64,000 nt of DNA from assembly GCA_007375725.1 (NCBI GenBank), contig VMEV01000002.1, positions 45,992-109,991 of the forward strand. Reading direction: 5' to 3'. Positions 2,392 through 24,386 of this stretch are shown here, in pieces. The position numbers and the translations under genes were made by a program. The stretch comes from Parcubacteria group bacterium Greene0416_36. Its GTDB lineage: Bacteria; Patescibacteriota; Patescibacteriia; VMEV01. Below the pieces are notes generated by a model. That model made no database searches. It was given only the letters and a program-made list of their open reading frames with translations, and was not told the origin of the DNA. Within the stretch, counting starts at the first letter, position 1. Every line of letters starts with the position of its first letter.

Positions 2392-2934
2392 TTATTTTTG
2401 ATAGTGACCTAAAAGAGCACAAGTTGCCCTTACTATGATAGGTCTTTTTTGTTCGGGAGCGAGACATACAAAATTGGTTATCTGTACATCTTGAGCGCTT
2501 GTCGTTTTTCGTCCTAGGTAGACTAGCTGGGCAAAAATCCATACTGCCTCATGTTCATTTATTTCTAGCTCGGTTTTTAACGTTTCAATAGGAGCTGTTT
2601 TTATTGCCTCTAGAGTCTTTTTGGGAATGAGTCGTTGTACGAGTTCTGCAATAGATTTGGACAGTGCTTTTTCTTTTTTTGAGAGTCCTACGACTTCCTC
2701 AATCATAACAACGGCAGGCGCTACAAGAAGGTGGGTTTTTGGTACCTCTTTCCCACCTAGATTATTCCAACACAACATATCTTTTAATATTGCTGTATCT
2801 TGCTTGCTCAGATTGATTTCTTTGCATCTATCCATGAATTTCTGTTCTGCTGGATGAATCTGCTTCTCCATGATGGTTTCCTTTGATTTGAAATGTACGG
2901 TTCGTGAATTTAAAAAGTGTTCTATGCTTAACAT
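2392..2934 (-). CDS. hypothetical protein
   Basis: 180-aa ORF, no recognisable motif; internal Met (MEKQIHP) may be true start. Confidence 0.4.
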   Translation of the reverse strand: MLSIEHFLNSRTVHFKSKETIMEKQIHPAEQKFMDRCKEINLSKQDTAILKDMLCWNNLGGKEVPKTHLLVAPAVVMIEEVVGLSKKEKALSKSIAELVQRLIPKKTLEAIKTAPIETLKTELEINEHEAVWIFAQLVYLGRKTTSAQDVQITNFVCLAPEQKRPIIVRATCALLGHYQK

Positions 2935-8631: not shown

Positions 8632-9639
8632 ATGCAATCTCAAATTTTGACTTCTTCCACGGAGATCACGCGCGCGACGAAGAAGGAACTGATGGATGCG
8701 TATCACGAACTACTCAAGAAATATAAGGATGATTCTGTATCCTCAGAATCAAAATCTGGGGATCCAAAAAAGGAGTCGGATATAAAAGAATCCGGGCCGG
8801 TTTTTTCGACAGGCAAAGATATTTTTGAGTCTATTCATGCGGCTCGTGGATCGGTGCAAGATTTTCTAGGTCAAATAGAGGGATTGCTGATGGGGAAATT
8901 TTCGGAACTCAAAAAGATGGAAGAGCAGCTGGCACATGGGCAGTCGCAATTAAAACTCCAGTATGATATTGAGGCCAATTCAGCTTCTCTCCTCGCTTTG
9001 ATTCGTGCTAATGATGAGAGCCGGCAGAAATTTGATAAGGAAAAAACAGCCCAGAAACAATTGTGGGCGGAAGAAGTGGAAGCCTCTGGGAAGCAGCGAA
9101 AAAGAGATGAGGAGGAATATTTGTATGCCTTGGAAATCAAAAAGAAAAAAGACGCCGAAGAGCAGGCGGAGATGCGAAAGAAATTTGATCAAGAAATTCA
9201 TTCTAGGGAGAAAGTTTTGATTGACCGCGAGAAAAATATGGCCGATAAAGAATCGGAATTCACCCGCCTCCAGGCTTTGGTCTCGAATTTTGACGCGCGC
9301 ATTGAAGAGACTCGCAAACATGCAGCTGCGGAAACGGAAAAAAGGCTGAAAATCGAGCATGAGGTGGCCATGACCCTTCTGAAAAAAGAAATGGATACTC
9401 AAAAAATAGTGGATTCTTCGAAAATTCATACTCTGGAATCCTTGATGGAATCGCAAAAACAAGGTGTGCGCGAACTTCAGGAGCAGCTTGCCAAGGCCAA
9501 TTCTCAAGTGCAGGAAGTGGTTCTGCGCACCATCGACAGCTCCGCGGGCGGCAAGGCCCTAGATGCGGTTAATAAAATCGCCCTAGAGCAGGCCAAAGGC
9601 GGGGTTTCTCAAAATAAATTCGGCAATAATCGGAATTGA
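8632..9639 (+). CDS. K/E-rich coiled-coil protein, function unknown
   Basis: 335-aa ORF, heptad-like charged repeats. Confidence 0.45.
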   Translation: MQSQILTSSTEITRATKKELMDAYHELLKKYKDDSVSSESKSGDPKKESDIKESGPVFSTGKDIFESIHAARGSVQDFLGQIEGLLMGKFSELKKMEEQLAHGQSQLKLQYDIEANSASLLALIRANDESRQKFDKEKTAQKQLWAEEVEASGKQRKRDEEEYLYALEIKKKKDAEEQAEMRKKFDQEIHSREKVLIDREKNMADKESEFTRLQALVSNFDARIEETRKHAAAETEKRLKIEHEVAMTLLKKEMDTQKIVDSSKIHTLESLMESQKQGVRELQEQLAKANSQVQEVVLRTIDSSAGGKALDAVNKIALEQAKGGVSQNKFGNNRN

Positions 9640-9660: not shown

Positions 9661-9707
9661 AAAGTGTAAGGGGTCCGACGTTACGTCGGACCCCTTACAC
9701 TTTTTTT
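9661..9707. terminator. bidirectional intrinsic terminator hairpin (A-run / GTAAGGGGTCCGACG..CGTCGGACCCCTTAC / T-run)
   Basis: 20 bp stem, A-tract upstream and T-tract downstream, between convergent genes. Confidence 0.7.
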
Positions 9708-10988: not shown

Positions 10989-11206
10989 GGTTAGGGTCCG
11001 GGAGGGGGAGAGGATAGCTAATAGCCTAGCCATTCGCTCCTCCTTCCGGAATATTTGCGGGTGATTCGTCGCCGCGGGTGAGGGGCCGGACGGAGAAAAA
11101 GGAAAATCAGACCCGCTGCTAATAGAGGGTCTGATTTTTTTATAAACGACAAGGTTTTATCCTTGGCAATAAAAGAATAAAAAGAAAACCCGCCCTGTTT
11201 AGTTTC

Positions 11207-12319
11207 GTGGATAAGTTGTTGATTTCTAGGTATTCTTTTAAAATGAATAGGGTTATAATAATGGAAAATTCTTTAGTCTTTTTTAACTTTATGGGGGGAA
11301 ATTATGATTCTTGGTTGATTGATATTGAGTCTTTTCCAGCGGATAAAAGCTGGGAAGAGAGGATCAAGTTTTTAATTGGTTTTGCTGTCTTGGCTCCTTC
11401 TAGCCACAATAGCCAGCCTTGGGTATTCAAGATTCGCGAGAATGAACTGTTTATAAATTTTGAGGCATCACGCGATCTGCCAGGAAGCGACCCCGGTGGC
11501 AGGCAGGCATGGACAAGCATTGGATGTGCAATGGAGAATTTGTGTATTTCATCTTCTTTTTACGGGCTTTCTTATAAAATAGAATATTTTTTTGTGGGGA
11601 CGGAAGAACCTTTTGTGAAGGTGATTTTTGAGTTAGCGAAAAATAATGCGGTTAGGCCTTCCCGTACTCTCATGCAGGCAATGCTCAATCGCCGTACCAA
11701 TAGAGGTGCTTATGGCAGGAAGATTCCTCTAGATTTTATTTCTGATGCGGCGGGATTCAATTCTCCGGCGTGCCGTATTGATTTTGTGAGCGATCCTGCT
11801 GGAATAGAAAAAATCGGCGAGATTGTCATTTCTTCGACTATTGATGCTTTCCGCAATCCGCTTTTTGGGCAGGAGCTTTCTGGGTATGTGAAATCCAACT
11901 GGACCCGAGCGGGCGCGGGTATTCCGGGTTTCGCGTTGGGGATTCCGGCTCCTATTTCACTTCTTGCTTCCTTTATGGTTCGCCGATTCAATATGGGAGA
12001 GCTGGGGGCCAAACAGGACCGGCAATTATACCGGGAAGGAACGCCGGTTTGGGGGATGGTGTCCTGTTCGGGGGACCATCGGAAAGATTGGGTTTGCGCT
12101 GGCATGCTGTACGAGAAACTTGCGCTTTTGGCAACCAAAAAAGGATTGGCGAGCGCCATGCAAGCTGCTCCTGTCCAGGTTGGCGAGTATTGGAAGAGCC
12201 TGCAGGAAGTTTTCCGGACGAGTTTTCGTCCGCTGGCCTTGTTCCGTTTGGGTTATCCCAGCCGCGAGGCTCGGCCCACTCCGCGCTTTTCGGCGGATCA
12301 GGTTTTGATTAGCCGCTAA
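11207..12319 (+). CDS. nitroreductase-family protein (two-domain, Acg-like)
   Basis: SHNSQPW motif; alternative start MENSLVFF ~11261; first gene of tight plus-strand cassette. Confidence 0.55.
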   Translation: MDKLLISRYSFKMNRVIIMENSLVFFNFMGGNYDSWLIDIESFPADKSWEERIKFLIGFAVLAPSSHNSQPWVFKIRENELFINFEASRDLPGSDPGGRQAWTSIGCAMENLCISSSFYGLSYKIEYFFVGTEEPFVKVIFELAKNNAVRPSRTLMQAMLNRRTNRGAYGRKIPLDFISDAAGFNSPACRIDFVSDPAGIEKIGEIVISSTIDAFRNPLFGQELSGYVKSNWTRAGAGIPGFALGIPAPISLLASFMVRRFNMGELGAKQDRQLYREGTPVWGMVSCSGDHRKDWVCAGMLYEKLALLATKKGLASAMQAAPVQVGEYWKSLQEVFRTSFRPLALFRLGYPSREARPTPRFSADQVLISR

Positions 12320-12329
12320 AATTTTTTTT

Positions 12330-14873
12330 ATGCAGAAAATTTCATGCCAGAGTTATCCGGACTTTGATAATCATGAATGCGTGGTCAAGATTGAGGATTC
12401 CTCCGTGGGACTTCTCGCTTTTATCGCGATTCATAATAGCGCCTTGGGTCCAGCCACCGGTGGAACGCGTATGTTTGATTACGGGACGGAAGAAGGGGCT
12501 GTCGCCGACGTGCTCCGCCTTTCCCGTGCGATGACCTACAAGTGCGCGGCTGCGGACGTGCCACATGGGGGAGGGAAGGCTGTGATCATGGGGGATCCTA
12601 GAAAAATGAAGACTCCGGCGCTTCTGCGCGCTTTTGCCAAAGCGGTCAATGAGCTGGAAGGAGCTTTTTCAACTGGAACCGATGCGGGGATTACAAAGGA
12701 AGATGTAGAAATCATGAGAGAAGTATCCGGTTTTATCAATGGGAAACATGGGGGAGACCCTGCTCCTTATGCGGCTCTGGGCACTTTTTATGGAATCCAA
12801 AGCGCATTACTGGAATGTTTCGGAAACGCGGATTGTCATGGGAGGGTCGTGGCCATCAAGGGAATAGGAAAAGTGGGGAGATCTTTGATCAGCCTCTTGG
12901 ACAAAGCAGGCGCGAAAATCATCGCGGCCGACATCGATGATGCCGCGGTCGCCTGGGTTAAGTCTCATTTTCCGTCGGTTCGATTGGCCAGTCCGTGGGA
13001 GATCCACCGCCAGAGGGCAGACGTGTTTTGTCCCTGTGCCATGGGGGGGGAGATCAGCCGCAAGGCCGCAATGGAAATTACGGCACGGATTGTCTGTGGC
13101 GCGGCCAATAACCAACTAAGGGATCCGGCTTGCGAGCAGATTTTATTTGGCCGAGGTATTTTGTATGTGCCTGATTTTGTCGCCAATGCTGGGGGGCTGA
13201 TCCATGTGGTCGACGAACTGGCTCCTCTGGGTTATGACGCGGACCGGGTTCGAGAGAAAATCAATAATATCAGATCCTTACTGGGGAATATTTTTGAGCT
13301 TGCAAGGAGGGATCTGCGGCTTCCCAACCAGGTGGCCGAGGAGATTGCAGAAAAAAAATTCAATAAAAAATATCCGGCAAGTCCTTTGGAGATTCACGAG
13401 AATGCAAAAACCCTCCTAGATCTTTATCTTTCCAAGGAAGACCCTTTTTGGGAAAGTTTGAGGGAGAAGAGAACCCTGGAACTGTTCCACGCGGCTGCCC
13501 GTTTGGTGCCCGCTTACTCTGATTTTCTCAAAAAACATGAAGTGAATCCTTCTAAAATCCGGACGTGGTCGGATTTCCAAAAAAATGTTCCCGTGATGGA
13601 TAAGAAAAATTATCTCCGGGCCTATCCCCTAGAGGCGATGACTTGGGGAGGAACCCTCAAAGGGAAGCCCCTTAATTTTGCCGCGACTTCAGGCTCCACT
13701 GGCGTTCCCTTCTATTTTCCCAGAAGCCCGCAGCTGGAGTGGCAGTGTTCGCTGACCCTCGAACTTTTTCTCCGGAGCAGTTCATTTGGCACCCAGGGTC
13801 CAATCGCAGTGATCAATGCTTTTTCTATGGGCGTGTGGATGGGCGGAATGATCACGTTCAAAGCGTTTGACATGATCAATCAGCGAGGCCATTGCCCGGT
13901 TTCGGTTCTATGTACCGGCAACAGCAAGCCGGCTATTTTTGCCGCTCTCCGCGAGTGGGCGCCGCACTTCAGCGAGGTCATTCTCATTGGTTATCCGCCC
14001 TTTATCAAAGATGTGATCGACGAGGGGCCGTCGGAGGGAATTGACTGGTCGAAGATCCGTTTGAGGCTGCATTTCGCGACCGAATCTTTTTCTGAAGAGT
14101 TTCGCGATTATATGGCCCAAAAAGCCTCTCTCAAAAATCCGTATTTGGACACCATGAATATTTATGGTTCCGCGGATATCGGCGCCATGGGTTTTGAGAC
14201 TCCCCAAGCCATACTTTTTAGGAAGTTGATTGTATCTAGCTCCGAGGCCGCTCAGGCTCTCTTCTCGGGCAAGACGGCAACGCTTGCGCAGTTCAATCCT
14301 TATTTCATCAATTTTGAAGCTCCGGATAAAAATGTTCTTCTCAGCGGCGACAACACCATTCCGCTTCTTCGGTACTCGCTGGGAGATAAGGGGGGGGTTT
14401 TGTCTTATAAGGATATGACTGCTCATATGGATACCCATGTTCCGCTGTGGAGGGAAGAAATGTCAAAAGCGGGGATCGTCCAGAGATATTCATTGCCGTT
14501 TGTCTATGTTTATGAGCGGGGAGACCTGTCCGTGAGTTTGTATGGAGCCAAGGTCTATCCGGAAACGATCCGAAAAGTTTTTCTCGAGGGCAGGTTCAGT
14601 GATTTCTATACTGGCAAGTTCACCTTGATTGTTCGCTATGACCAGGAGCAGAACCAGCATCTGGAGGTTCATGTGGAACAAAAAAAAGATGCTCCTCGGT
14701 CAGATTCTAAAATGCTCGCCGATGCGATTGTCGCCCTTTTGGTGCATGAAAATGCCGAGTACCGAAGTCATCATGATCAAATTCCGGACAAGGTTTTGCC
14801 GGACGTGATTCTATGGCCATTTGGGGATCCTCTGCATTTCGGGCCCAATCCCAAACAGCAGTGGATCAAATGA
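12330..14873 (+). CDS. fusion: Glu/Leu/Phe/Val-type amino-acid dehydrogenase (N) + PaaK/CapK/F390-synthetase-like adenylate-forming domain (C)
   Basis: GGTRMFDYG...MTYKCAAADVPHGGGKAVIMGDP and Rossmann IKGIGKVGRSL; C-half TSGSTGVPFYFP adenylation motif. Confidence 0.6.
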   Translation: MQKISCQSYPDFDNHECVVKIEDSSVGLLAFIAIHNSALGPATGGTRMFDYGTEEGAVADVLRLSRAMTYKCAAADVPHGGGKAVIMGDPRKMKTPALLRAFAKAVNELEGAFSTGTDAGITKEDVEIMREVSGFINGKHGGDPAPYAALGTFYGIQSALLECFGNADCHGRVVAIKGIGKVGRSLISLLDKAGAKIIAADIDDAAVAWVKSHFPSVRLASPWEIHRQRADVFCPCAMGGEISRKAAMEITARIVCGAANNQLRDPACEQILFGRGILYVPDFVANAGGLIHVVDELAPLGYDADRVREKINNIRSLLGNIFELARRDLRLPNQVAEEIAEKKFNKKYPASPLEIHENAKTLLDLYLSKEDPFWESLREKRTLELFHAAARLVPAYSDFLKKHEVNPSKIRTWSDFQKNVPVMDKKNYLRAYPLEAMTWGGTLKGKPLNFAATSGSTGVPFYFPRSPQLEWQCSLTLELFLRSSSFGTQGPIAVINAFSMGVWMGGMITFKAFDMINQRGHCPVSVLCTGNSKPAIFAALREWAPHFSEVILIGYPPFIKDVIDEGPSEGIDWSKIRLRLHFATESFSEEFRDYMAQKASLKNPYLDTMNIYGSADIGAMGFETPQAILFRKLIVSSSEAAQALFSGKTATLAQFNPYFINFEAPDKNVLLSGDNTIPLLRYSLGDKGGVLSYKDMTAHMDTHVPLWREEMSKAGIVQRYSLPFVYVYERGDLSVSLYGAKVYPETIRKVFLEGRFSDFYTGKFTLIVRYDQEQNQHLEVHVEQKKDAPRSDSKMLADAIVALLVHENAEYRSHHDQIPDKVLPDVILWPFGDPLHFGPNPKQQWIK

Positions 14874-14915
14874 TTGCCAACTATTTTTTTAATCTTTTAT
14901 TTTTGATGAAAAAAT

Positions 14916-16100
14916 ATGAATATCGAGCAGTTTTTGCTGGAAAAACAAAAAGAGAATCTAGATATCAGCCGGCCTCTCGTTTTAAATTTGGCGGCTGAGT
15001 CTGGGAGAGTGCTTCTGGAATATCTCACTAAAGATGGCAAAATCGCTCGGGTATCGGATGATTTCGAGGAGCAGATGCGGGAATATTTTGCGGTAGAGCA
15101 TCCGGAACTTATTTTCCATCCTGAGTTTAAAAAATATTTCGAAGATTATTGGCAGGGCCTCCTCCACGAGAAGCCAAGATGGCAGCATGGAGTCTGGGTT
15201 TATTTTCCATGGATGCTGTCATTGATTCATGTCTTGGATGAAGAGGCATTCAATTGTGTCCGCACGGCTAGAAATAAGCACCTGATTACGGAAGCGGAAC
15301 AGAAAAAGTTTTATGAATCGACCATTGGAATCGCCGGCCTCAGCGTGGGAAATAGCGTGGCTCTCTCTATTGTTTTGGGCGGGGGAGCCAAGCGCATCAA
15401 GCTGGCTGATTTTGACCGCTTGTCCCTGTCCAATCTCAACCGCATCCGCGGCGGGGTGGAGTGTCTGGGTTTTCTGAAGGTCGAGATGACCGCGCGACAG
15501 ATCTACTCGCTCAATCCGTTTACAGAAGTGGAGTATTTCCCTGGCGGCCTCAATGAAGAGAATATGGATCGTTTTTTCGACGGGCTGGATCTCGTCGTCG
15601 ACGAAATCGATAATCTCGGCATCAAATACCGGATACGTCAGGAAGCCAAAAAACGCAAGCTGCCGGTTGTCATGGCTGCGGATAACGGTGATAATGGCGT
15701 GGTAGATATTGACCGTTATGATCTGGATCCTGAGCTCGAATTTTTCCATGGCCGCATGGGAGATCTCAAGTACGAAGATCTGATCCGCCTCAATAAGATG
15801 GAGATCGGGAAATTGATCACCCGGCTGGTGGGGCCTGAGAATGTGACTGAAAGAATGCAGCAGTCTCTCATGGAAATTGGAAAAACCGTGGTGTCCTGGC
15901 CTCAGCTGGGGGGCGCGGCGCTTCTCAACGGCTCGGCCGTTGCCTATTGCGTGCGTAGGATTCTCAATCATCAAAGTGTGTTTGATAACCGCACTCTCAT
16001 TTCATGGGATGAACTTATGGATCCTGAGCATAATACGGATCTGCAAAAAAAGCACCGAGCGGAGCTGACCCTCGAATTTAAGAAAAAGTTCGGTTTATAA
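14916..16100 (+). CDS. ThiF/MoeB/E1-like adenylyltransferase-family protein with ~130-aa N-terminal extension
   Basis: IGIAGLSVGNSVA...IKLADFDRLSLSNLNRI Rossmann/E1 signature. Confidence 0.6.
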   Translation: MNIEQFLLEKQKENLDISRPLVLNLAAESGRVLLEYLTKDGKIARVSDDFEEQMREYFAVEHPELIFHPEFKKYFEDYWQGLLHEKPRWQHGVWVYFPWMLSLIHVLDEEAFNCVRTARNKHLITEAEQKKFYESTIGIAGLSVGNSVALSIVLGGGAKRIKLADFDRLSLSNLNRIRGGVECLGFLKVEMTARQIYSLNPFTEVEYFPGGLNEENMDRFFDGLDLVVDEIDNLGIKYRIRQEAKKRKLPVVMAADNGDNGVVDIDRYDLDPELEFFHGRMGDLKYEDLIRLNKMEIGKLITRLVGPENVTERMQQSLMEIGKTVVSWPQLGGAALLNGSAVAYCVRRILNHQSVFDNRTLISWDELMDPEHNTDLQKKHRAELTLEFKKKFGL

Positions 16101-16167
16101 AAAAGACGATGGGATTACAGGGTGGAATAAGTTATAATATAATAAATTTATTTTTGTTTCGTCCCTT

Positions 16168-17040
16168 ATGAAAGCTGAACAGAGATTGTTGGGAAAGTTT
16201 GCAACTCCATTTACCCTCGGTCAAATAGATGTGGGAAATTTTCGGATCAATTACATTCAAGGGGGAAAAGGCGAGCCTCTGTTACTCATTCATGGAGCTA
16301 ATATCGGATGGGGCCAGTGGCACTTGAATCTGGATGAAATGGCTAAAAAAAATGAAGTATTCGCGATAGATTTACCAGGATCAGGAGGATCGACTAAAAT
16401 AGAAATGAAGGACTCAAATCTCGAAGAAGATTTTGTGGAGACAGTTCATCAGTTTCTAGAAAAAAAAGGAATTACTCAAGTAAATATCTGCGCACATTCT
16501 TTGGGTGGTTGGGTGGCTTTAAAGCTGTCACTTCGGGCCCCTCAACTTGTGAAGAAAATGGTGCTTCTCAGTCCGGTAGGGCTTTCTTCGTATTTGCCTT
16601 GGCAATATCGACTGATGGGTTTTTCTTTTTTCGTAAGAGTGCTTACCCAGAAATGTGTTCCGGTGAATAGAAAGAATATGGCAGATTTTCTAGGTAGTGT
16701 ATGCAAAAAGAAAGATTTTTTGACGGATGATTTCGTCGATTATTATTTTGAATCTATAACAAGGGGGGAGAGAGTGACACACCCCTTTTGGTGTATCCAC
16801 CGATTGTGTGATATTGGCAAGATGAGGTCTGAGTTTTATTTAGCGGATGAAATAAAAACCATCCGTGCGGAAGTACTATGGATTTGGGGCAGGGAAGATC
16901 CTTTATTTCCATTGAGAAAGAATGCCAATATTTCAAATGCTTTGAAAGGAAAAACTGAAGTTTTTGAGAATACTGGGCATGTTGCCTGTCTTGAAAATCA
17001 TTCGTTATTTAACGAGATTTGTTGTAGGTATCTGGGATAA
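16168..17040 (+). CDS. alpha/beta-fold hydrolase
   Basis: HGANIG oxyanion region, nucleophile elbow HSLGGWVA, C-terminal His. Confidence 0.6.
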   Translation: MKAEQRLLGKFATPFTLGQIDVGNFRINYIQGGKGEPLLLIHGANIGWGQWHLNLDEMAKKNEVFAIDLPGSGGSTKIEMKDSNLEEDFVETVHQFLEKKGITQVNICAHSLGGWVALKLSLRAPQLVKKMVLLSPVGLSSYLPWQYRLMGFSFFVRVLTQKCVPVNRKNMADFLGSVCKKKDFLTDDFVDYYFESITRGERVTHPFWCIHRLCDIGKMRSEFYLADEIKTIRAEVLWIWGREDPLFPLRKNANISNALKGKTEVFENTGHVACLENHSLFNEICCRYLG

Positions 17041-17061
17041 AAATACAAATTACAATTCCTT

Positions 17062-19230
17062 ATGGGGGGAGTTATAGCGCTAAGGCTAGGTATTTTGAGC
17101 GTTGTTATCGTTTTGAATTTTTTCGTTTCAATTTTTGTTTATAGAAAAAATCGCCAAAGTGCGACGAATATTATATTCGTTATTCTTACAGCTTTGATTT
17201 CCGCTTGGCTGGTAGTTTTGTTTTTGGCTGATTATCCTGAGCTTAATTTATTTTGGGCCAGAATGACTAATTTTGTGGCAACGGCGATGAGCCTTGCTTT
17301 TTTGCTTTTGGTTCACACATTACCAGACTTTCAGCTGAGAATGCGAAAACGTAGTTTGTTTTTTCTGCTAAGCGTGACCCTGATTGTCATGATAGCGACT
17401 GTTTCTCCCTATACATTTACAGGGATTGATATTGTGGATGGGGTTCGGCAAGTAAAAGTGGGGCCTGGGATGATTTTGTTTTCTCTGTTCAACCCTCTGT
17501 GTAATATCGCAGCTATTTATTTGCTCTTCGAGAAATATCGACGTGCTTCTGGGATAGAGAAACAGCAGCTGCGATTTATTCTTTTGGGTATTTTCGTCAT
17601 GTTCGCGATGATTATCGCGACTATTTTGATTCCTGTTTTATTTTTTCAGCAGCATTTTTACGTCGCCTTTGCTCCTTTGTATGCATTGTGTTTTATTTTT
17701 GGAACAGCTTATTCAATTGTCAAATATCGTTTCCTTGATATCCGCCTCGTGATACGAAAAAGCGTGGCATATGCATTGTCGCTGAGTGTGACCTTGGGGG
17801 TTTGCGGGCTCATCATGAATGCAATGATCTATGCGAGCCCCTATCAGTCCTGGTTCGGTTATTTTATTTTGGTTTTGGGCATTGTTTTATTCAATCCTAT
17901 CCACAAAAAAATATTGGTTATTTCCAATCGGTATTTTTTTCAGTCTTTTTATGATTATAGGAAAGCTCTGCTTGAAACTGGCCAGAAAATTTTGAGTCTC
18001 ATTACCCTCGAAGATATTTCGCGGGAGATTTTCGTACCCCTCTTGCGCAATTTACAGCTGGAATTTTGCGGCATTTATCTTTCATACAAAAAACCGTTTT
18101 TTCACGCCTTGTCTGAATCGGGAGAATTTGAAGTTCCCAAAAAAGAATTAGCGTCGCTCGCTCATTTATTGTCTCTTTATTCAAAAGGTAGAATTATTCT
18201 GGCTCAGGAATTCTATTCCCGCAAATTTCATCTTTCGGCTGAATTCAAGCAAAAGATGGTGAGCAATAAAATTGAGGTGATTTTGCCGCTCATTTCAGGT
18301 AAAAATTTTCTTGGGTTTTTATTTTTGGGCTCCAAAATTTCACGAGAACCCTTCACTCTTGAAGATATTCAGCTTTTGGAGCTTATCAATACCCAGCTTT
18401 CCCCGGCCATTGCCAATGCTAGCCACTTCCGAGAGCTCAAAATCGTCAATGTCCATTTGGAAGAAAAAGTGGCCGAACAAGTGCAAAAAATCCGAGATCT
18501 TTATGATGTCAAAGCCGAATTTTTGAGCATTAGCTCCCATCAGCTCCGAACCCCTCTGACCGTCATCATCGGGATGCTCGATATGATTCGAGAGGGAGCG
18601 GTGCGCGGCAAAAAACGCGATGATTTTTTATCTAAAGTAATGGCTTCGGCTGTGAGACTGAACCGGGTTGTCAATGATATTATGGATTCCCATGAATTGG
18701 ACCGTGGCGCCAAACATTACAAAAAAGGCCTTGTTGATTTACGTGATATGATTAAAAATGTCTATGATGCTTTTTTGCCTAAAGCTCAAGAGAAAAATGT
18801 GGAATTGAAATTAGATTTTGTATCTAGTAATTCATTGATTTGGGCGGACCCTAAAATTCGAGATGTTTTTGTCAATCTGATCGATAATGCCCTCTGCTAT
18901 ACCCCTAAAGGGGCGGTGACGGTGAAACTCTACAATTCAGATGCCCATCATGTTGGCGTGGACGTGGTGGATTCTGGGGTTGGCATGTCGAAAGATACGA
19001 TTGCGTCTCTCTTTCAGAAGTTTTCGCGAGGGAAGAATATTCGGCAGATCCGTCCCAATGGATCGGGGTTGGGATTGTTTATTGTGCGAAAAATTCTTGA
19101 AAATAATCACGGATCCGTTGAGGCAACCTCTATGGGAGAAGGTACTGGCAGTACCTTTTCCGTGCGCCTGCCGATTGCTTCTCCCAAATATTTGGTCCGG
19201 TCAGCGGAAAAGGAAAATGAAACCGAGTAG
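17062..19230 (+). CDS. sensor histidine kinase with multi-TM N-terminal sensor region
   Basis: ~7 TM helices, HisKA H-box ISSHQLRTPLTVI, HATPase_c (DNALCYT..GSGLGLFIV). Confidence 0.75.
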   Translation: MGGVIALRLGILSVVIVLNFFVSIFVYRKNRQSATNIIFVILTALISAWLVVLFLADYPELNLFWARMTNFVATAMSLAFLLLVHTLPDFQLRMRKRSLFFLLSVTLIVMIATVSPYTFTGIDIVDGVRQVKVGPGMILFSLFNPLCNIAAIYLLFEKYRRASGIEKQQLRFILLGIFVMFAMIIATILIPVLFFQQHFYVAFAPLYALCFIFGTAYSIVKYRFLDIRLVIRKSVAYALSLSVTLGVCGLIMNAMIYASPYQSWFGYFILVLGIVLFNPIHKKILVISNRYFFQSFYDYRKALLETGQKILSLITLEDISREIFVPLLRNLQLEFCGIYLSYKKPFFHALSESGEFEVPKKELASLAHLLSLYSKGRIILAQEFYSRKFHLSAEFKQKMVSNKIEVILPLISGKNFLGFLFLGSKISREPFTLEDIQLLELINTQLSPAIANASHFRELKIVNVHLEEKVAEQVQKIRDLYDVKAEFLSISSHQLRTPLTVIIGMLDMIREGAVRGKKRDDFLSKVMASAVRLNRVVNDIMDSHELDRGAKHYKKGLVDLRDMIKNVYDAFLPKAQEKNVELKLDFVSSNSLIWADPKIRDVFVNLIDNALCYTPKGAVTVKLYNSDAHHVGVDVVDSGVGMSKDTIASLFQKFSRGKNIRQIRPNGSGLGLFIVRKILENNHGSVEATSMGEGTGSTFSVRLPIASPKYLVRSAEKENETE

Positions 19231-19296
19231 GTTGTATGGTTTTTATTGGAAAATGGCTAGAGGAAGCTGATTATTTTTTTTATATCCGTGGCATTT

Positions 19297-19325
19297 GTAG
19301 GGACGTTGCATTGCAACGTCCCTAC
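19297..19325. repeat. REP-like hairpin GTAGGGACGTTGCATTGCAACGTCCCTAC (extended stem 19290-19332)
   Basis: perfect palindrome after kinase gene; near-identical copy at 59959-59986. Confidence 0.55.
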
Positions 19326-19376
19326 AAATGCCACTAATTTGTGCTTATCTACACCTTATCCACATTGTGAATTACT

Positions 19377-20105
19377 ATGAAAGAGCAACTCATCAATTTA
19401 GGTTTTTCCGATTCCCAGGCCCGTTCGTACGAGATATTGCTCGAGCATCGTTGGGTTTTACCCTCCACCTTGGCCAAATTTTTGGGTATTTCACAAACCG
19501 GAGCGCAGAAGATTTTGAATTTCTTTTCCAGCGAAGGGTTGGTCCGTCAGCGGCCCATTGGCAAGAAAAATTATTACGGGATTACAGATTTGGGGGCGTT
19601 CGAAGATTTTTTGGCGCGGCGGGAGCTCCGGGCACTTCGAGAAATGGAGCGTCAAAAAGAGGAGGGCAGGAAGGCTCTCCAGGACGCGCACTTGAGTTTC
19701 TCCCAGAAAAATAAGGATTTATCGGTGTTTTTCGTCGATGGCCCCTCTCGTCTTTCCCATATCGAGACTCATATTCTCAATTGTGTCTCCGGCGATATTT
19801 TGGGGTTTTCTAGCGGTGAATTGAAATATAAAACTCTCACTGCCAAGTCCCCTGCCCAGCGATTCAAGATTATTTATACCGGCCCAAAATGCTCGCTTCC
19901 CAAAAAAGGCCAAGAACATTTCAGGGTGAAAGACCCCGCAGACTTGCCTCAAAATACGGTCGAAGTATTGCTGTTTCCGGACAAGGTTATTTTTGTGCTG
20001 GATGAGCAGGACCGCAATCTGGTCCTCTTGGATCCCTCGGTGGTGGAGACCCTTCGCTGCCTATTTTCATTGGCATTATCTAGCTCCCGAGTCGTTAAGC
20101 TTTAA
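19377..20105 (+). CDS. putative TrmB/MarR-like HTH transcriptional regulator
   Basis: N-terminal winged-helix pattern SDSQARSYEILLEH...LPSTLAKFLGISQTGAQKIL. Confidence 0.4.
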   Translation: MKEQLINLGFSDSQARSYEILLEHRWVLPSTLAKFLGISQTGAQKILNFFSSEGLVRQRPIGKKNYYGITDLGAFEDFLARRELRALREMERQKEEGRKALQDAHLSFSQKNKDLSVFFVDGPSRLSHIETHILNCVSGDILGFSSGELKYKTLTAKSPAQRFKIIYTGPKCSLPKKGQEHFRVKDPADLPQNTVEVLLFPDKVIFVLDEQDRNLVLLDPSVVETLRCLFSLALSSSRVVKL

Positions 20106-20291: not shown

Positions 20292-20864
20292 ATGAGACAA
20301 AAAATATTTTTGTCTTCGGCCTCGGGAACCCTCTCCGCCACGGAAAGCTTGGTGGCTGTTGCCCGGTTTTTGTCGGGCGAGGGGCATCATCTTTTCTCCG
20401 ACCGAGACGCTCTCTCTGCAGCCCACCACTCGATCATTCTCTCTTCCGCTCTGGGAGATTCGCCACGAGAGATTGCGGGGCTGATGGATGCCTTTGTTTT
20501 TGAGGCCTCCGGAATGGATTTTGAAAAAGGTCTGTGGATGGCGTGGGCGGCGCTTGAAAGGAAGCCCGTTCTGGTTCTCGTGCCAAAAGGCAAACAAGCA
20601 AGTAGTTCTTTACGGGAATGGGAAAAATCATCGGATTTTTGTTCCCGCGTGGCGTATTATAGCCGCCATAATATCAAAGCGGTCGTGGCCGGTTTTCTCC
20701 AGTCCTTGGCTTTTTTCACCGAACGGGAAAATTCGGTGAAATTCACCCTCCGCGTTCAGCCCAAGCTTTTGGGCCATTTGCGCGGCAAGGCCCATCGAAT
20801 GGGAATCACTTCGGCCCGACTTTTGCGGGATCTGATCCGTGAAGATTTTCTGAAATCCCTCTAA
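20292..20864 (+). CDS. hypothetical protein, possible C-terminal ribbon-helix-helix
   Basis: 190-aa ORF; C-term FTLRVQPKLLGHLRGKAHRMGITSARLLRDLIRE resembles RHH/CopG. Confidence 0.35.
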   Translation: MRQKIFLSSASGTLSATESLVAVARFLSGEGHHLFSDRDALSAAHHSIILSSALGDSPREIAGLMDAFVFEASGMDFEKGLWMAWAALERKPVLVLVPKGKQASSSLREWEKSSDFCSRVAYYSRHNIKAVVAGFLQSLAFFTERENSVKFTLRVQPKLLGHLRGKAHRMGITSARLLRDLIREDFLKSL

Positions 20865-21409: not shown

Positions 21410-22531
21410 ATGTCTGATTTATACGATAGATCATCAGCTATTTTGTCAAGTTTAAAGGTTACGAATGTCAGCAAAGGTCAGAAAATTAGGATGTTTTTTG
21501 CTGAAATTGTACAGTTTTATGTTTGGAGTGTGTTACCACCTGGTAAGTGTGCGTTGAGAATTCCAGAGAATTATAGATCAGGCGAGAAATTTAGTGACTT
21601 TAATCGTCTGAATTTGAAAGAGGCGGTTATTGCATTTCGTAAGATTTTTTTTGAAGAAGGAGGGTATCAGTGTTTATGGCCGCGGTGCTCTTATAGAGCA
21701 GAACATGGATTTGTTCTCAAGCTGGGCTATAAAGAAATGTTACGGAAGATTTTCCACTGGCATCAGGAACAAATTGAATCTGCGTCGATTGATGAGATTA
21801 TAGATTTTTTCGCTAAAATAGAAGAGGAGGAAAAACATCAGAAAAAGTCGATAGCCTGTCCTCATTGCCGTTGGTCGATGACCGCTATCTATTCGGAAGA
21901 AACTGTGGCTGAATATATTGATAAAGAGCTGAATTTTGATGTCCCTCCGGAAGATAAAACAAAGTTTTATCCGGTTTGGTCTACGATGGGGGATCCTTAT
22001 GACAATCGTATCTGTGGACTTTGTTTTGGGGCGATTACAATTAGGCAAATGTTTTCCTTCCTCTTTGTAAGAGAAGAATATAATTCGACGCATCTTCTGA
22101 ATGCTGGGATATTATATGCTAAGAGGCTCAAAACATTTTGGGATACCAAAAAATTGAATGCTTTGATGCCTTTTGCTTTGGTTTATATTCTTGGGACGAC
22201 ATTGGATTATCGAAATCGTGCCGCAAAAGATAATCAATTGGGATTGGAGCCAATTATTTTTTTGACACACCATATCATGTACCATGCTCAGAAAAATGGA
22301 AATAATTGGTTATTTTTGGCGACTAGAGATAAATCTTTGCTGGGCATTTTATCGGCGGCTGGATTTGAAGCGGTTCCTTCTCTTCCAGATGAACCTAGAG
22401 AATTTGCTTTGGAAGAGCAATGGACCATTCTCTATCATTCAGATGTCGGATCATTATTAGCTGTTGTGCAAAATACAAAACCCTCTGAATTCGCTCATCT
22501 GTTAAAAATGTGCGGGAAAGCATTCCACTAA
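21410..22531 (+). CDS. hypothetical protein with three Cys pairs (CLWPRC, CPHC, CGLC)
   Basis: 373-aa ORF; possible zinc-binding pairs; no family assigned. Confidence 0.45.
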   Translation: MSDLYDRSSAILSSLKVTNVSKGQKIRMFFAEIVQFYVWSVLPPGKCALRIPENYRSGEKFSDFNRLNLKEAVIAFRKIFFEEGGYQCLWPRCSYRAEHGFVLKLGYKEMLRKIFHWHQEQIESASIDEIIDFFAKIEEEEKHQKKSIACPHCRWSMTAIYSEETVAEYIDKELNFDVPPEDKTKFYPVWSTMGDPYDNRICGLCFGAITIRQMFSFLFVREEYNSTHLLNAGILYAKRLKTFWDTKKLNALMPFALVYILGTTLDYRNRAAKDNQLGLEPIIFLTHHIMYHAQKNGNNWLFLATRDKSLLGILSAAGFEAVPSLPDEPREFALEEQWTILYHSDVGSLLAVVQNTKPSEFAHLLKMCGKAFH

Positions 22532-22751: not shown

Positions 22752-24386
22752 ATGAATTTGGTCTGGATATTTTCATTGATTGTTTCATTGGGGGCTTTTA
22801 TTTTAGGAGCCATTATTTTCTTGTATAAAAGCAAAAAAGGATCTAATTCGATCTTTGCATTGCTCTGTATCCTCTTAGGTTTTTGGTCTTTTTCTAATCT
22901 CCTTTCTTTTGGATCTTCAAATGACATTCAAATTTTATTCTGGTCTCAATTGACAATTGTCGGACCTTTTTTTGCCGGGCCTTTATTGTTCTTGTTTAGT
23001 ACGGTTTTTCCCGTACATCAGAGTATCTCAAGGAAATTTTTGTTTTATTTGTTTACGCCCGCTTTTCTTTCTTTGTTATTTGTTTTTTCGAGGTGGAATA
23101 TCTCGTCGGTATCTTCCGGCAATGAGTCACTTCAATTTGAACCCGGATTATTATATATCGTTTTGTTTATTTATCTCATGACTACGGTATCCGGCGCATT
23201 TTATAATTTGAGACTTTCATTTCTTCAGTCTGATGATACTTTAATCCGATCTCAAATTAAATTGGTTTCTTTGGGTTTCATCTGTTTGACCGCCCTAGGA
23301 GGGGGGACTAATTTGATTTCGCCTTTGTTTTTTGGAAATTCTCAAGGCTCTATTTGGGGGCCGCCTGTCTCTTTGTTTTTATTCATTATCTTTATCGGCC
23401 TCGCCATTCTTCGATACCGATTCCTTAATATCAGATTAATTTCCGTTCATGCCATTTCATTTTTCATCGCCTTTATTTTATTGTTTCAGGCTTTTTTTTC
23501 CGTGTCTGGCTTGGAATTGGCCTTCCGATTTTTATTTTTTATCATTGTTTCGATTTTATTGTTCTTCTTGTCCCGCTCCGTCGCGCATGAGATCAAAATC
23601 AAAAACGAATTAGCAAATTTGAACGTGGAATTGTCCCGGACAAACCGGAAGCTTGAGAATTTGAATAACCGTCTGCAGGTTTTGGATATCGCGAAATCCG
23701 AGTTCGTCTCTATCGCATCTCATCAGCTCCGGACGCCGCTGACTGTCATGAAGGGCTATCTGTCCATGATCGGCGAAGGGGTTTTTGGGCCGATGTCGTC
23801 TCGGCCGCTGCGAGACGTGATGAATAAAATGACGCGGAGTACGGACCGCTTGATCGATCTGGTCAATGATCTGCTCAATGTCTCGCATATCGAGAGCGGC
23901 AAGCTGGATTTGTATTGGGAGCACTTGGATGTTGGGGAATTGGCCTCGTCCGTCGTATCGGATCTGGCACCCAGAGCCTCCGTGAAAAAAATTAATATTC
24001 AGCTCAATCGGCCTTCGTTTGTGGTGGGCAAAGTTAAATCCGATGGCCGAAAATTGGCGGAAGTAATGACGAATTTGATCGATAATGCGATTAAATATTC
24101 TCCGGAGAATACGGTTGTGGATATCTTTGTCTATCAAAAATCAGGAGATGTCTTTTTTTCCGTCAGGGACCAAGGGATCGGTGTTGATCCCGCTAATATC
24201 GAGCGCTTGTTTCAGAAATTTTCTAGGATGGATGAGACTTATGTCACGAGGGTAGAGGGGTCGGGGCTGGGACTTTTTGTATGCAAAAAACTGATCGACA
24301 TGTTCGGCGGCCGTATTTGGGCTGAAAGCCGCGGCAAAGGCCACGGCTCCACTTTCACCTTTGCCCTGAAAGTTGTGGAATCATAA
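22752..24386 (+). CDS. sensor histidine kinase, multi-TM, paralogue of 17062-19230
   Basis: H-box IASHQLRTPLTVM, HATPase_c GSGLGLFVCKKLI; N-terminal ~8 TM helices. Confidence 0.75.
   Translation: MNLVWIFSLIVSLGAFILGAIIFLYKSKKGSNSIFALLCILLGFWSFSNLLSFGSSNDIQILFWSQLTIVGPFFAGPLLFLFSTVFPVHQSISRKFLFYLFTPAFLSLLFVFSRWNISSVSSGNESLQFEPGLLYIVLFIYLMTTVSGAFYNLRLSFLQSDDTLIRSQIKLVSLGFICLTALGGGTNLISPLFFGNSQGSIWGPPVSLFLFIIFIGLAILRYRFLNIRLISVHAISFFIAFILLFQAFFSVSGLELAFRFLFFIIVSILLFFLSRSVAHEIKIKNELANLNVELSRTNRKLENLNNRLQVLDIAKSEFVSIASHQLRTPLTVMKGYLSMIGEGVFGPMSSRPLRDVMNKMTRSTDRLIDLVNDLLNVSHIESGKLDLYWEHLDVGELASSVVSDLAPRASVKKINIQLNRPSFVVGKVKSDGRKLAEVMTNLIDNAIKYSPENTVVDIFVYQKSGDVFFSVRDQGIGVDPANIERLFQKFSRMDETYVTRVEGSGLGLFVCKKLIDMFGGRIWAESRGKGHGSTFTFALKVVES

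Follow-up and report, generated by a model that had tools for sequence, protein, structure and literature searches.

An operon of the CPR/Patescibacteria, present in at least 341 species-level genomes and represented by more than 2000 protein clusters, combines a ThiF-like protein of the oxazolone synthetase group with a flavin oxidase, a PaaK-fold ligase and, in most loci, a membrane sensor kinase. We propose, at a probability of roughly one half, that across the CPR it directs the synthesis of a metabolite derived from amino acids, either an oxazolone or an N-acyl-α,β-dehydroamino acid, as a variant of the OxzAB, TyzACB and TrzAS systems. CPR bacteria have tiny genomes and almost no biosynthesis, and the operon is retained despite this scant capacity. 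If the proposal is right, oxazolone chemistry, so far found in Proteobacteria, Actinomycetota and Planctomycetota, reaches a new superphylum, the N-acyl amino acid substrate is made by a CoA-independent, all-amino-acid route, and an oxazolone pathway is genetically tied to a membrane sensor kinase. It would further offer a handle on what bacterial oxazolones do and on how ultra-small symbionts sense and signal, and would suggest what a large PaaK-fold family, specific to the CPR and lacking a Pfam model, is likely to do.

In the window, which is the whole 64,000-nucleotide stretch of DNA analysed here, five tightly spaced plus-strand ORFs occupy positions 11207-19230 (likely starts and ends in Table 1). 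The preliminary description gave spacers of 11, 43, 68 and 22 nt; these are coordinate differences, and the stretches between the genes in fact measure 10, 42, 67 and 21 nt. Its reading of the five genes as one operon was right. Median gaps in related loci are 3-12 nt between dehydrogenase and ligase, ligase and ThiF, ThiF and oxidase, and oxidase and kinase, and the conserved arrangement is far beyond chance. On the SSB side, a hairpin with a T-run (approximately 11108-11141) bounds the operon at its 5' side. The maximal ORF of the first gene (11207-12319, 370 aa) opens with GTG, but the gene probably starts at the ATG at 11291, since 14 homologues begin at the aligned M-x-x-N-Y-x-x-W. A -10-like TATAAT lies upstream of this gene at 11254-11259; a sigma-70 promoter was not assigned there, as a good -35 is absent and the promoter scan missed the TATAAT. 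An Rfam search of the window returned a single tRNA, far from the cassette.

Table 1. Features of the operon and its 3' flank in the window.
Feature	Position	Strand	Basis or remark
Flavin-dependent oxidase, nitroreductase superfamily, Acg/Rv3131 type	11291..12319	+	NF047509, part of NF005901, 2YMV
Amino-acid dehydrogenase domain, Leu/Phe/Trp dehydrogenase clade	12330..13379	+	PF02812, PF00208, PDB matches
PaaK-fold adenylate-forming ligase domain, CPR-specific family	13380..14873	+	AF2 model and Foldseek
ThiF-like ATP-dependent cyclase, TrzS/Rv1355c type, with N-terminal domain of ~120 aa	14916..16100	+	NF005901, BLASTP, AF2
α/β-Hydrolase with GxSxG motif (AHSLGG)	16168..17040	+	PF00561 (Abhydrolase_1), E = 2e-26; 290 aa
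Sensor histidine kinase, 7TM-GAF-HisKA-HATPase_c	17062..19230	+	Pfam (HisKA_7TM and others); 722 aa
20-bp perfect hairpin	19288..19334	+	Terminator-like scan; likely 3' end of the operon
TrmB-family transcription regulator	19377..20105	+	PF01978, E = 5e-7; separate transcription unit, only a possible associate

Gene neighbourhoods were counted in 47 fully flanked CPR loci, and neighbouring genes and small ORFs were clustered over about 80 loci. Whether the gene set co-occurs elsewhere, a question raised by the preliminary description, has a clear answer: co-occurrence is very strong, in hundreds of CPR bacteria. The "four-enzyme cassette" of that description, however, is not the conserved unit, which is ligase-ThiF-oxidase(-kinase). 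The ligase lies directly upstream of ThiF in all 47 loci (median gap 12 nt), and an oxidase adjoins ThiF in 42, with a TrzS-type domain in 31 and of the Acg type in 11. The multi-TM kinase, earlier named as a partner of the cassette, earns that place as a conserved last gene of the operon by following the oxidase in 36 of the 47 loci (median gap 3 nt), and each of the 7 loci sampled for its architecture encodes a 7TM kinase. The dehydrogenase is interchangeable and its fusion to the ligase is unique to the window genome. A hydrolase homologue occupies the same position in only two other loci (L075 and L077), and the hydrolase was set aside as an accessory, lineage-specific gene.

The ThiF protein (394 aa; PF00899, E = 4e-21) belongs with the cyclases of the TrzS/TyzB/OxzB group. 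It matches profile positions 4-350 of the NF005901 "Rv1355c family" model at 335.5 bits (E = 6e-100), with the next ThiF model at 81 bits, and BLASTP against an annotated Rv1355c family protein gave an alignment of 318 aa with 36% of residues identical (E = 1e-61). The NF005901 equivalog, which is defined on a single fused protein at 476 bits or more, is missed, as the window carries two genes scoring 335.5 and 61.9 bits. The ATP-binding motifs are intact and align with those of TcdA and the TrzS family; G138, G141, G145, D165, D167, N175-R176, K188, D229 and D232 are invariant among 26 homologues, and alignment suggests that the protein carries an Asp equivalent to TrzS D217. Its N-terminal extension had been called novel. 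It aligns, however, with the N-terminal part of NF005901 and occurs in actinobacterial homologues too; no counterpart was found in solved E1-like structures. In searches with the AF2 model (pLDDT 83), the top structural neighbour was AclA of Tenacibaculum discolor (9egb), for which we found no published description, and other neighbours were MccB, PaaA, MoeB, ThiF, Uba4, BubCD and Cap2. By sequence profile the nearest solved relative is TcdA (E = 3e-15), which likewise forms an oxazolone ring.

The window oxidase is encoded two genes upstream of ThiF in the same operon. It scores 179.6 bits (E = 1e-52) against NF047509, the Acg family FMN-binding oxidoreductase model, just under the cutoff of 199, which its homologue in L005 passes at 200.9 bits; among solved structures, Acg (2YMV, E = 2.5e-6) is the nearest in sequence. 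Against the oxidase part of NF005901 (profile positions 374-646) it reaches the 61.9 bits given above, with 21% pairwise identity, whereas a TrzS-type CPR oxidase reaches 179 bits over positions 373-716. We know of no demonstrated case of an Acg-type oxidase acting in oxazolone synthesis.

The pairing of a ThiF-like cyclase with a nitroreductase-superfamily flavin oxidase is itself a published module, contrary to the earlier statement that no described pathway is comparable: oxazolone synthetases were reported as OxzB in 2021, TyzBC in 2023 and TrzS (Rv1355c) in 2025. TrzS unites an ATP-dependent cyclase and an O2-dependent desaturase in one protein, and was shown experimentally to yield N-acyl tryptazolones (PMC12856293). 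The CPR loci resemble the TrzAS system of Mycobacterium and Rhodococcus (Rv1356c/Rv1355c; PMC12856293) in the cyclase, including its N-terminal region, and in the nitroreductase-superfamily oxidase partner, which in most CPR loci is of the TrzS type. They differ in that cyclase and oxidase are separate genes, that the window oxidase is Acg-type, that a PaaK-fold ligase and a deaminase stand in place of the TrzA acyltransferase, that a 7TM kinase is part of the operon, and that the host belongs to the CPR and not to the Actinomycetota. The tyrazolone pathways TyzACB (Rv2336-2338c; PMC10404671) and OxzAB (Pseudoalteromonas rubra; bioRxiv 10.1101/2020.06.11.147165) also have an N-acyl aromatic amino acid cyclised by an ATP-dependent ThiF protein and desaturated in an O2-dependent step, and in the former the two steps are carried out by separate proteins, TyzB and TyzC (PMC10404671), like the CPR ThiF and oxidase. 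The acyl donor in the CPR loci, by contrast, appears to be a deaminated amino acid. A ThiF and nitroreductase pair in operon-like order is likewise found in NasY-ThiF-nitroreductase(-methyltransferase) clusters, which make the N-acyl dehydrotyrosines stieleriacines, thalassotalic acids and kyonggic acids (PMC12479983). Their hallmark is NasY, a synthase of N-acyl amino acids, and ligase, deaminase and kinase are all absent from them. A PaaK-like ligase with a deaminase front end, and the distribution in the CPR, are apparently undescribed so far.

The second gene of the operon (12330-14873, 847 aa) encodes the fusion. Its N-terminal half is an ELFV dehydrogenase (PF02812 and PF00208, E = 1e-24 and 1e-17) nearer to Leu/Phe/Trp than to Glu dehydrogenases: its PDB matches are LeuDH at 261 bits, TrpDH at 241, PheDH at 179 and GluDH at about 83, and its best NCBIfam match is the Trp dehydrogenase ScyB at 276 bits, short of the equivalog cutoff of 600. 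The C-terminal half matches PaaK weakly by sequence (TIGR02155, 28.4 bits, E = 6e-7; equivalog cutoff 646), and a sequence search of the PDB gave no match. Its AF2 model (pLDDT 85, pTM 0.80) retrieved PaaK1/2 with Foldseek at E of about 1e-19, although at 13-16% identity, and then 2-hydroxyisobutyryl-CoA ligase, ClxA, GH3 amido synthetases and McbA. The earlier assignment of this half as a PaaK/CapK-type adenylating domain is thereby borne out at the level of the fold, and the other domain assignments agreed with the Pfam and NCBIfam searches. The ligase family comprises 1367 clusters, and all named matches among its top 120 come from CPR lineages. In relatives, dehydrogenase and ligase are separate genes or overlap by a few nucleotides; the fusion is seen in a single genome, and a stop codon lost in assembly could account for it.

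Three types of deaminating enzyme are interchangeable directly upstream of the ligase: across the 47 loci, this slot holds a dehydrogenase in 18, an aromatic ammonia-lyase in 7 and an aminotransferase in 5, with none in 17. The 11 lyase-adjacent ligases form the deepest clade, perfectly pure, with 51% identity within it and approximately 31% to the rest. ThiF, oxidase and kinase show no such split; the ligase alone co-varies with the type of deaminase.

The preliminary description pictured a small-molecule system with no YcaO, carrier protein or precursor peptide, and none was found in the window or among the recurrent neighbours. Clustering of ORFs of 18-90 aa in or beside the cassette over about 80 loci, in line with its suggestion to look for small ORFs nearby, gave no GG-terminated ORF and no conserved group; the sole recurring groups, two clusters of 3 loci each, are short and low in complexity and look spurious. 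The lack of a conserved small ORF, and of an acyltransferase family among the recurrent neighbours, speaks against a substrate borne on a peptide or carrier. A scan of 20 ORFs of the window, from 35 to 30542, detected no acyltransferase domain, no cluster of acyltransferases reaches as many as 4 of the approximately 80 loci, and no N-acyl amino acid synthase or acyltransferase of the OxzA, TyzA, TrzA or NasY kind adjoins the cassette. Since this enzyme defines the known systems, its absence means that we only infer the substrate of the ThiF protein and the oxidase.

In the proposed pathway, the dehydrogenase domain, a Leu/Phe/Trp-type enzyme by its matches, would oxidatively deaminate a presumably hydrophobic or aromatic amino acid to the 2-oxo acid. 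The fused PaaK-fold domain, whose coupling to deaminases is observed, would adenylate that acid and join it to a second amino acid at the α-amine, presumably in preference to CoA, and so replace the acyl-CoA-dependent N-acyltransferase. By homology, the TrzS-type ThiF would then adenylate the carboxylate of the N-acyl amino acid, with the amide oxygen closing the 5(4H)-oxazolone, and the Acg-type flavin oxidase would desaturate the Cα-Cβ bond. At a guess, the α/β-hydrolase of this sub-lineage may cleave the labile ring, or it may pass on the activated acyl group; the products of the NasY clusters are ring-opened N-acyl dehydroamino acids, which makes a role for a hydrolase possible. The 7TM histidine kinase, linked to the cassette in most loci, might connect it to signal transduction by sensing the product or controlling the operon.

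We favour the oxazolone model because the ThiF protein is TrzS-like, an oxidase is adjacent, ligase and deaminase are coupled, and ClxA, GH3 and McbA work independently of CoA. The GH3 acyl-acid amido synthetases, ClxA and McbA match the predicted ligase fold (Foldseek E = 1e-11 to 1e-8) and link an amine or hydroxyl straight to an adenylated acid, the activity proposed for the CPR ligase, but their identity to it is only 10-16% and the closest matches are CoA ligases (PaaK1/2, BT_0428 and 2-hydroxyisobutyryl-CoA ligase). These top matches speak for a rival reading, in which the ligase makes CoA thioesters from 2-oxo acids or coumarate in the use of aromatic or branched-chain amino acids, and the ThiF protein and oxidase act on another substrate. 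Pairs of TAL with coumarate-CoA ligase, or of a deaminase with a CoA ligase, are common, and the co-variation of ligase and deaminase fits this reading too. Nevertheless, no CoA-dependent enzyme, decarboxylase or β-oxidation gene recurs near the cassette, the ligase-ThiF-oxidase order, kept with gaps of 3-12 nt in almost every locus, speaks for a single pathway, and the distance to PaaK in identity and bit score is large; we regard an ordinary acyl-CoA ligase as unlikely. Further points weigh against the oxazolone model: the window oxidase is Acg-type, with 62 bits to the TrzS oxidase domain, 17 of the 47 loci have no nearby deaminase, and the known oxidases need O2, although water poor in oxygen is home to many CPR bacteria.

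Tailoring of a RiPP or other peptide would have the ThiF N-terminal domain bind a precursor, as in MccB, PaaA and TOMM C-proteins, and the oxidase act as a SagB/McbC-type dehydrogenase. TOMM clusters do pair E1-like with nitroreductase-fold proteins, MccB and PaaA are among the ThiF structural neighbours, and radical SAM/SPASM genes lie near 5 of the 47 loci, in L043 followed by a Cys-rich 47-aa ORF. These genes are sporadic, however, and look like a separate module; of the YcaO and precursor peptide expected of a TOMM, the former was not found in the window or the recurrent neighbours and no small ORF is conserved over about 80 loci, the ThiF protein fits the small-molecule enzyme TrzS far better than other ThiF models (335 versus at most 81 bits), and TrzS shares the N-terminal domain and needs no peptide, which makes peptide tailoring very unlikely. 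The ThiF fold and the neighbours MoeB, ThiF, Uba4, BubCD and Cap2 would also suit an E1 that acts on a sulfur-carrier or ubiquitin-like protein, in ThiS/MoaD thiocarboxylate formation or in conjugation or defence of the Bil, Bub or Cap2 type. We consider this highly improbable, given that the window and recurrent neighbours hold no GG-terminated small ORF, E2, JAB or rhodanese gene and that the ThiF, MoeB, MoeZ and SAMP-E1 models score 22-66 bits, far under their cutoffs (45-66 bits against 152-376 for ThiF/MoeB). PADLOC returned only generic E1 or E1-E2 matches of at most 31 bits and none for the other cassette proteins, and a defence system was rejected. Although TcdA is the best solved match by profile, a TcdA-like tRNA ct6A dehydratase with unrelated neighbours is extremely improbable: the match to NF011696 reaches 31.5 bits where the cutoff is 304, TcdA has no 120-aa N-terminal domain, and the order with ligase, oxidase and kinase is kept at gaps of a few nucleotides in dozens of species.

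Operons that join an autoinducer synthase to a multi-TM sensor kinase include agrBDCA, LuxM/LuxN and CqsA/CqsS. As in these, the small-molecule genes of the CPR cassette are co-transcribed with or adjoin a polytopic membrane histidine kinase, but there is no homology to their synthases or receptors, and a signalling role is hypothetical. N-acyl oxazolones resemble acyl-homoserine lactones, as noted by the authors of the TrzS study (PMC12856293). As a speculation that we consider doubtful, the cassette might form a signalling circuit complete in itself in episymbiotic CPR bacteria, with an all-amino-acid oxazolone or N-acyl-dehydroamino-acid autoinducer, made without fatty acyl-CoA by deaminase, ligase, ThiF and oxidase and sensed by the 7TM kinase together with receiver-only regulators. 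Patescibacteria would then have their first described chemistry of a quorum-sensing-like or host-sensing kind, and bacterial oxazolones a first physiological role. Receiver-only response regulators flank a third of the loci; the window contains no DNA-binding response regulator. TrmB genes adjoin the cassette in L004 and occur in 5 of the 47 loci, too few for TrmB to be taken as a core member, and a possible methyltransferase-like protein (a weak, sub-threshold NCBIfam match) recurs in 12 CPR loci.

ORF calling recovered the five plus-strand genes of the operon as they had been described (table below), with intergenic spacers of 10, 42, 67, and 21 nt. Two hairpins bracket the operon, and its neighbours are housekeeping genes (PNPase, trypsin-like peptidase, YibE/F, Fur, SSB, pyruvate kinase, and RNase J). 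The start of gene 1 is most likely ATG 11291, because 14 homologues begin at the aligned motif M-x-x-N-Y-x-x-W. The 847-aa product has a counterpart at 100% identity in Parcubacteria group bacterium Gr01-1014_18 (CPR/Patescibacteria). The domain assignments of the preliminary description were all borne out when the window proteins were compared with Pfam, NCBIfam, PDB, and structure models. Gene 1 scores 179.6 bits on NF047509 (NCBIfam cutoff 199) and has Acg (2YMV) as its closest solved structure. The ELFV dehydrogenase half of gene 2 is closest to Leu (261 bits) and Trp (241 bits) dehydrogenases and distant from Glu dehydrogenases.

Features of the operon and its surroundings (window coordinates)
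Feature	Position	Strand	Description
Gene 1	11207-12319	+	Acg/Rv3131-type nitroreductase-superfamily protein (oxidase)
Gene 2	12330-14873	+	847-aa dehydrogenase-ligase protein
Gene 3	14916-16100	+	ThiF
Gene 4	16168-17040	+	α/β-hydrolase
Gene 5	17062-19230	+	7TM-GAF-HisKA-HATPase kinase
Hairpin with T-run	~11108-11141		after SSB
20-bp perfect hairpin	19288-19334		after operon kinase; weak T tail only
20-bp perfect palindromic hairpin	9661-9703		between convergent genes; T-runs on both sides
Second 7TM kinase	22752-24386	+	HisKA_7TM-HisKA-HATPase, 544 aa
ORF	35-1954		639 aa; no significant Pfam family
ORF	2392-2934	-	180 aa; no significant Pfam family
ORF	8632-9639		335 aa; no significant Pfam family, no NCBIfam match
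ORF	20292-20864		190 aa; no significant Pfam family, no NCBIfam match
ORF	21410-22531		373 aa; no significant Pfam family

ThiF homologues of the window type fall into more than 2253 protein clusters, and the named matches among the top 120 hits all belong to CPR lineages (55-61% identity). When one genome per species was scanned, 341 genomes had a relative; the best 80 loci all come from Patescibacteria lineages or from metagenome-assembled genomes without a name. ORFs were called in these 80 loci and searched with the window proteins, and neighbours were counted in 47 loci flanked by 4 kb or more on each side. The PaaK-like ligase is present in all 47, an oxidase in 42, and the 7TM kinase in 36. 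Ligase, oxidase, and kinase accompany ThiF together in 35/47 loci, and the same set occurs on three independent metagenome contigs. Median gaps are short (dehydrogenase to ligase 3 nt, ligase to ThiF 12 nt, ThiF to oxidase 5 nt, and oxidase to kinase 3 nt), and the 7TM-HisKA-HATPase architecture is shared by each of the 7 kinases sampled. The oxidase is of the Acg type, as in the window, in 11 loci and of a second type, matching the TrzS oxidase domain (179 bits), in 31. The hydrolase, originally counted as a fourth enzyme of the set, is not a conserved member: besides the window it was found only in the related loci L075 and L077, where it occupies the same position. The dehydrogenase-ligase fusion, which may reflect a stop codon lost at about 13365-13400, occurs in the window only; as separate genes in relatives, its two parts lie 3-10 nt apart or overlap.

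Gene 3 matches the NCBIfam model "Rv1355c family protein" with 335.5 bits (E 6e-100) over profile positions 4-350 of 722, and positions 374-646 of this model align with gene 1. Since the two genes match successive parts of it, Rv1355c (TrzS) is a ThiF-oxidase fusion, one protein there whereas the window has two separate genes. In published experiments, TrzS used ATP to cyclise N-acyl tryptophan and O2 for the subsequent desaturation, yielding N-acyl tryptazolones (PMC12856293). Oxazolones do not survive acid or methanol (PMC12856293). Tyrosine is handled in the same way by TyzB/TyzC of M. tuberculosis and by OxzB of Pseudoalteromonas rubra (PMC10404671, bioRxiv 10.1101/2020.06.11.147165, PMC12596934), and NasY-ThiF-nitroreductase clusters from three phyla have been linked to N-acyl dehydrotyrosines (PMC12479983). 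The claim that no described pathway combines such enzymes thus fails for the pairing of ThiF with a nitroreductase-like protein. The ThiF assignment is further supported by 36% pairwise identity to an annotated Rv1355c family protein of a Mycolicibacterium plasmid (318 aa, E 1e-61), by ATP-binding motifs invariant across 26 homologues, and by TcdA, another enzyme that closes an oxazolone ring, as the best profile match among solved structures. A domain of about 120 aa at the N-terminus, predicted at high confidence in the structure model, had been regarded as a novel extension. It lacks a counterpart in solved E1-like structures, which align over at most 253 residues, and is common to the TrzS family and Streptomyces homologues. 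It is also carried by the stand-alone ThiF of L085, a locus on a Streptomyces sp. NBC_01426 plasmid (7977-9751; 34% identity over residues 1-368). There, a GNAT acyltransferase gene comes next, overlapping ThiF by 4 nt, which fits N-acyl amino acid chemistry, and no nitroreductase-like gene is annotated nearby; L085 may be a relative of the pathway with the cyclase alone.

Neighbour clustering and family scans revealed that, in loci lacking the dehydrogenase, an ammonia-lyase or an aminotransferase can take its place immediately upstream of the ligase. The 47 loci have a dehydrogenase in 18 cases, a lyase in 7, an aminotransferase in 5, and none of these in 17. The lyase is an aromatic amino-acid ammonia-lyase (PF00221, E 3e-160), with FlxA-type tyrosine ammonia-lyase as its best NCBIfam match (602 bits), and the aminotransferase is of the HisC family. 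Each of the three enzymes strips the α-amino group from an amino acid, leaving a carboxylic acid. To test whether ligase type varies with the deaminase, we placed 75 ligases in an identity-based tree. Its deepest branching sets apart exactly the 11 ligases that adjoin a lyase, 51% identical to one another and about 31% to the remainder, from all others. No lyase-linked split is seen in ThiF, oxidase, or kinase of the same loci, and ThiF is 57-64% identical across all groups. Such a pattern would arise if the product of the deaminase were the substrate of the ligase and if ThiF and the oxidase acted on an invariant part of the molecule.

We read the cassette as an oxazolone pathway fed by a ligase, with a probability of about 0.5. 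The data show the enzyme family memberships, the conserved operon, deaminase-ligase coupling, and intact ThiF motifs. The ligase would adenylate the deaminated acid and N-acylate a second amino acid with it, replacing the acyl-CoA-dependent acyltransferase of known systems; ThiF would then close the oxazolone and the oxidase would desaturate the Cα-Cβ bond. The hydrolase of the window's sub-lineage may open the labile ring, and the 7TM kinase may sense the product or regulate the operon. Unlike the known oxazolone systems, the cassette is missing their defining acyltransferase, and neighbour clustering in the scanned loci found no acyltransferase family recurring near it. In the literature searched, no paper ties ThiF or oxazolones to Patescibacteria, and no account describes an oxazolone pathway fed by a ligase and a deaminase.

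The main doubt is whether the ligase uses an amine rather than CoA as acceptor, and a plain CoA-ligase route is the corresponding rival. The ligase half of gene 2 has no sequence match in Pfam or PDB; its AF2 model (pLDDT 85, pTM 0.80) matches PaaK1/2 (Foldseek E ~1e-19), and further matches include 2-hydroxyisobutyryl-CoA ligase as well as ClxA, GH3 amido synthetases, and McbA. Much less likely readings are that gene 3 is a sulfur-carrier or ubiquitin-like E1, or acts as TcdA. Among structures, AclA (9egb) is the nearest neighbour of the gene 3 model. A RiPP system is also an unlikely rival: radical SAM genes occur close to the cassette in 5/47 loci, but the suggested search for small ORFs found none conserved near it. 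PADLOC returned no match to a defence system.

In L043, a radical SAM/SPASM gene (11940-13460, plus strand) lies 0.8 kb downstream of ThiF, and after it comes a 47-aa ORF whose C-terminus is Cys-rich (…SCDNGACYDCVSCDCASDCDK); the two look like a separate RiPP module. L078 and L019 each contain two ThiF copies within 6 kb. The second copy in L078 is paired with a second ligase gene, with a radical SAM gene between the two pairs, and the repeated copies suggest that the cassette was duplicated in tandem. In 12 loci, among them L050 (17823-18779, plus strand), a conserved protein of about 308 aa without a Pfam family is encoded between oxidase and kinase, with a median gap to the kinase of 4 nt; it is absent from the window. 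The protein may be a methyltransferase, judging from a weak PRK06202 match and a DLGAGG motif.

Of about 80 loci, 21 have receiver-only response regulators (~130 aa, without an output domain) flanking the cassette, among them L009, L012, L015, L051, L057, and L059. The regulator genes usually lie immediately upstream of the deaminase or ligase gene, sometimes two or three in tandem. A receiver query detected no response regulator anywhere in the window. The second 7TM kinase of the window, 3.5 kb downstream of the operon, matches the operon kinase with 138 bits. The hairpin between convergent genes is unrelated to the one following the operon kinase and, given its flanking T-runs, resembles a bidirectional terminator. 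Every 2-kb bin of the window (1-64000) has positive GC skew, with the cumulative skew climbing monotonically, and most long ORFs are on the plus strand; the whole window thus appears to lie on the leading strand of one replichore. A homologue of the 190-aa window ORF is found in L051, 5 kb downstream of ThiF.
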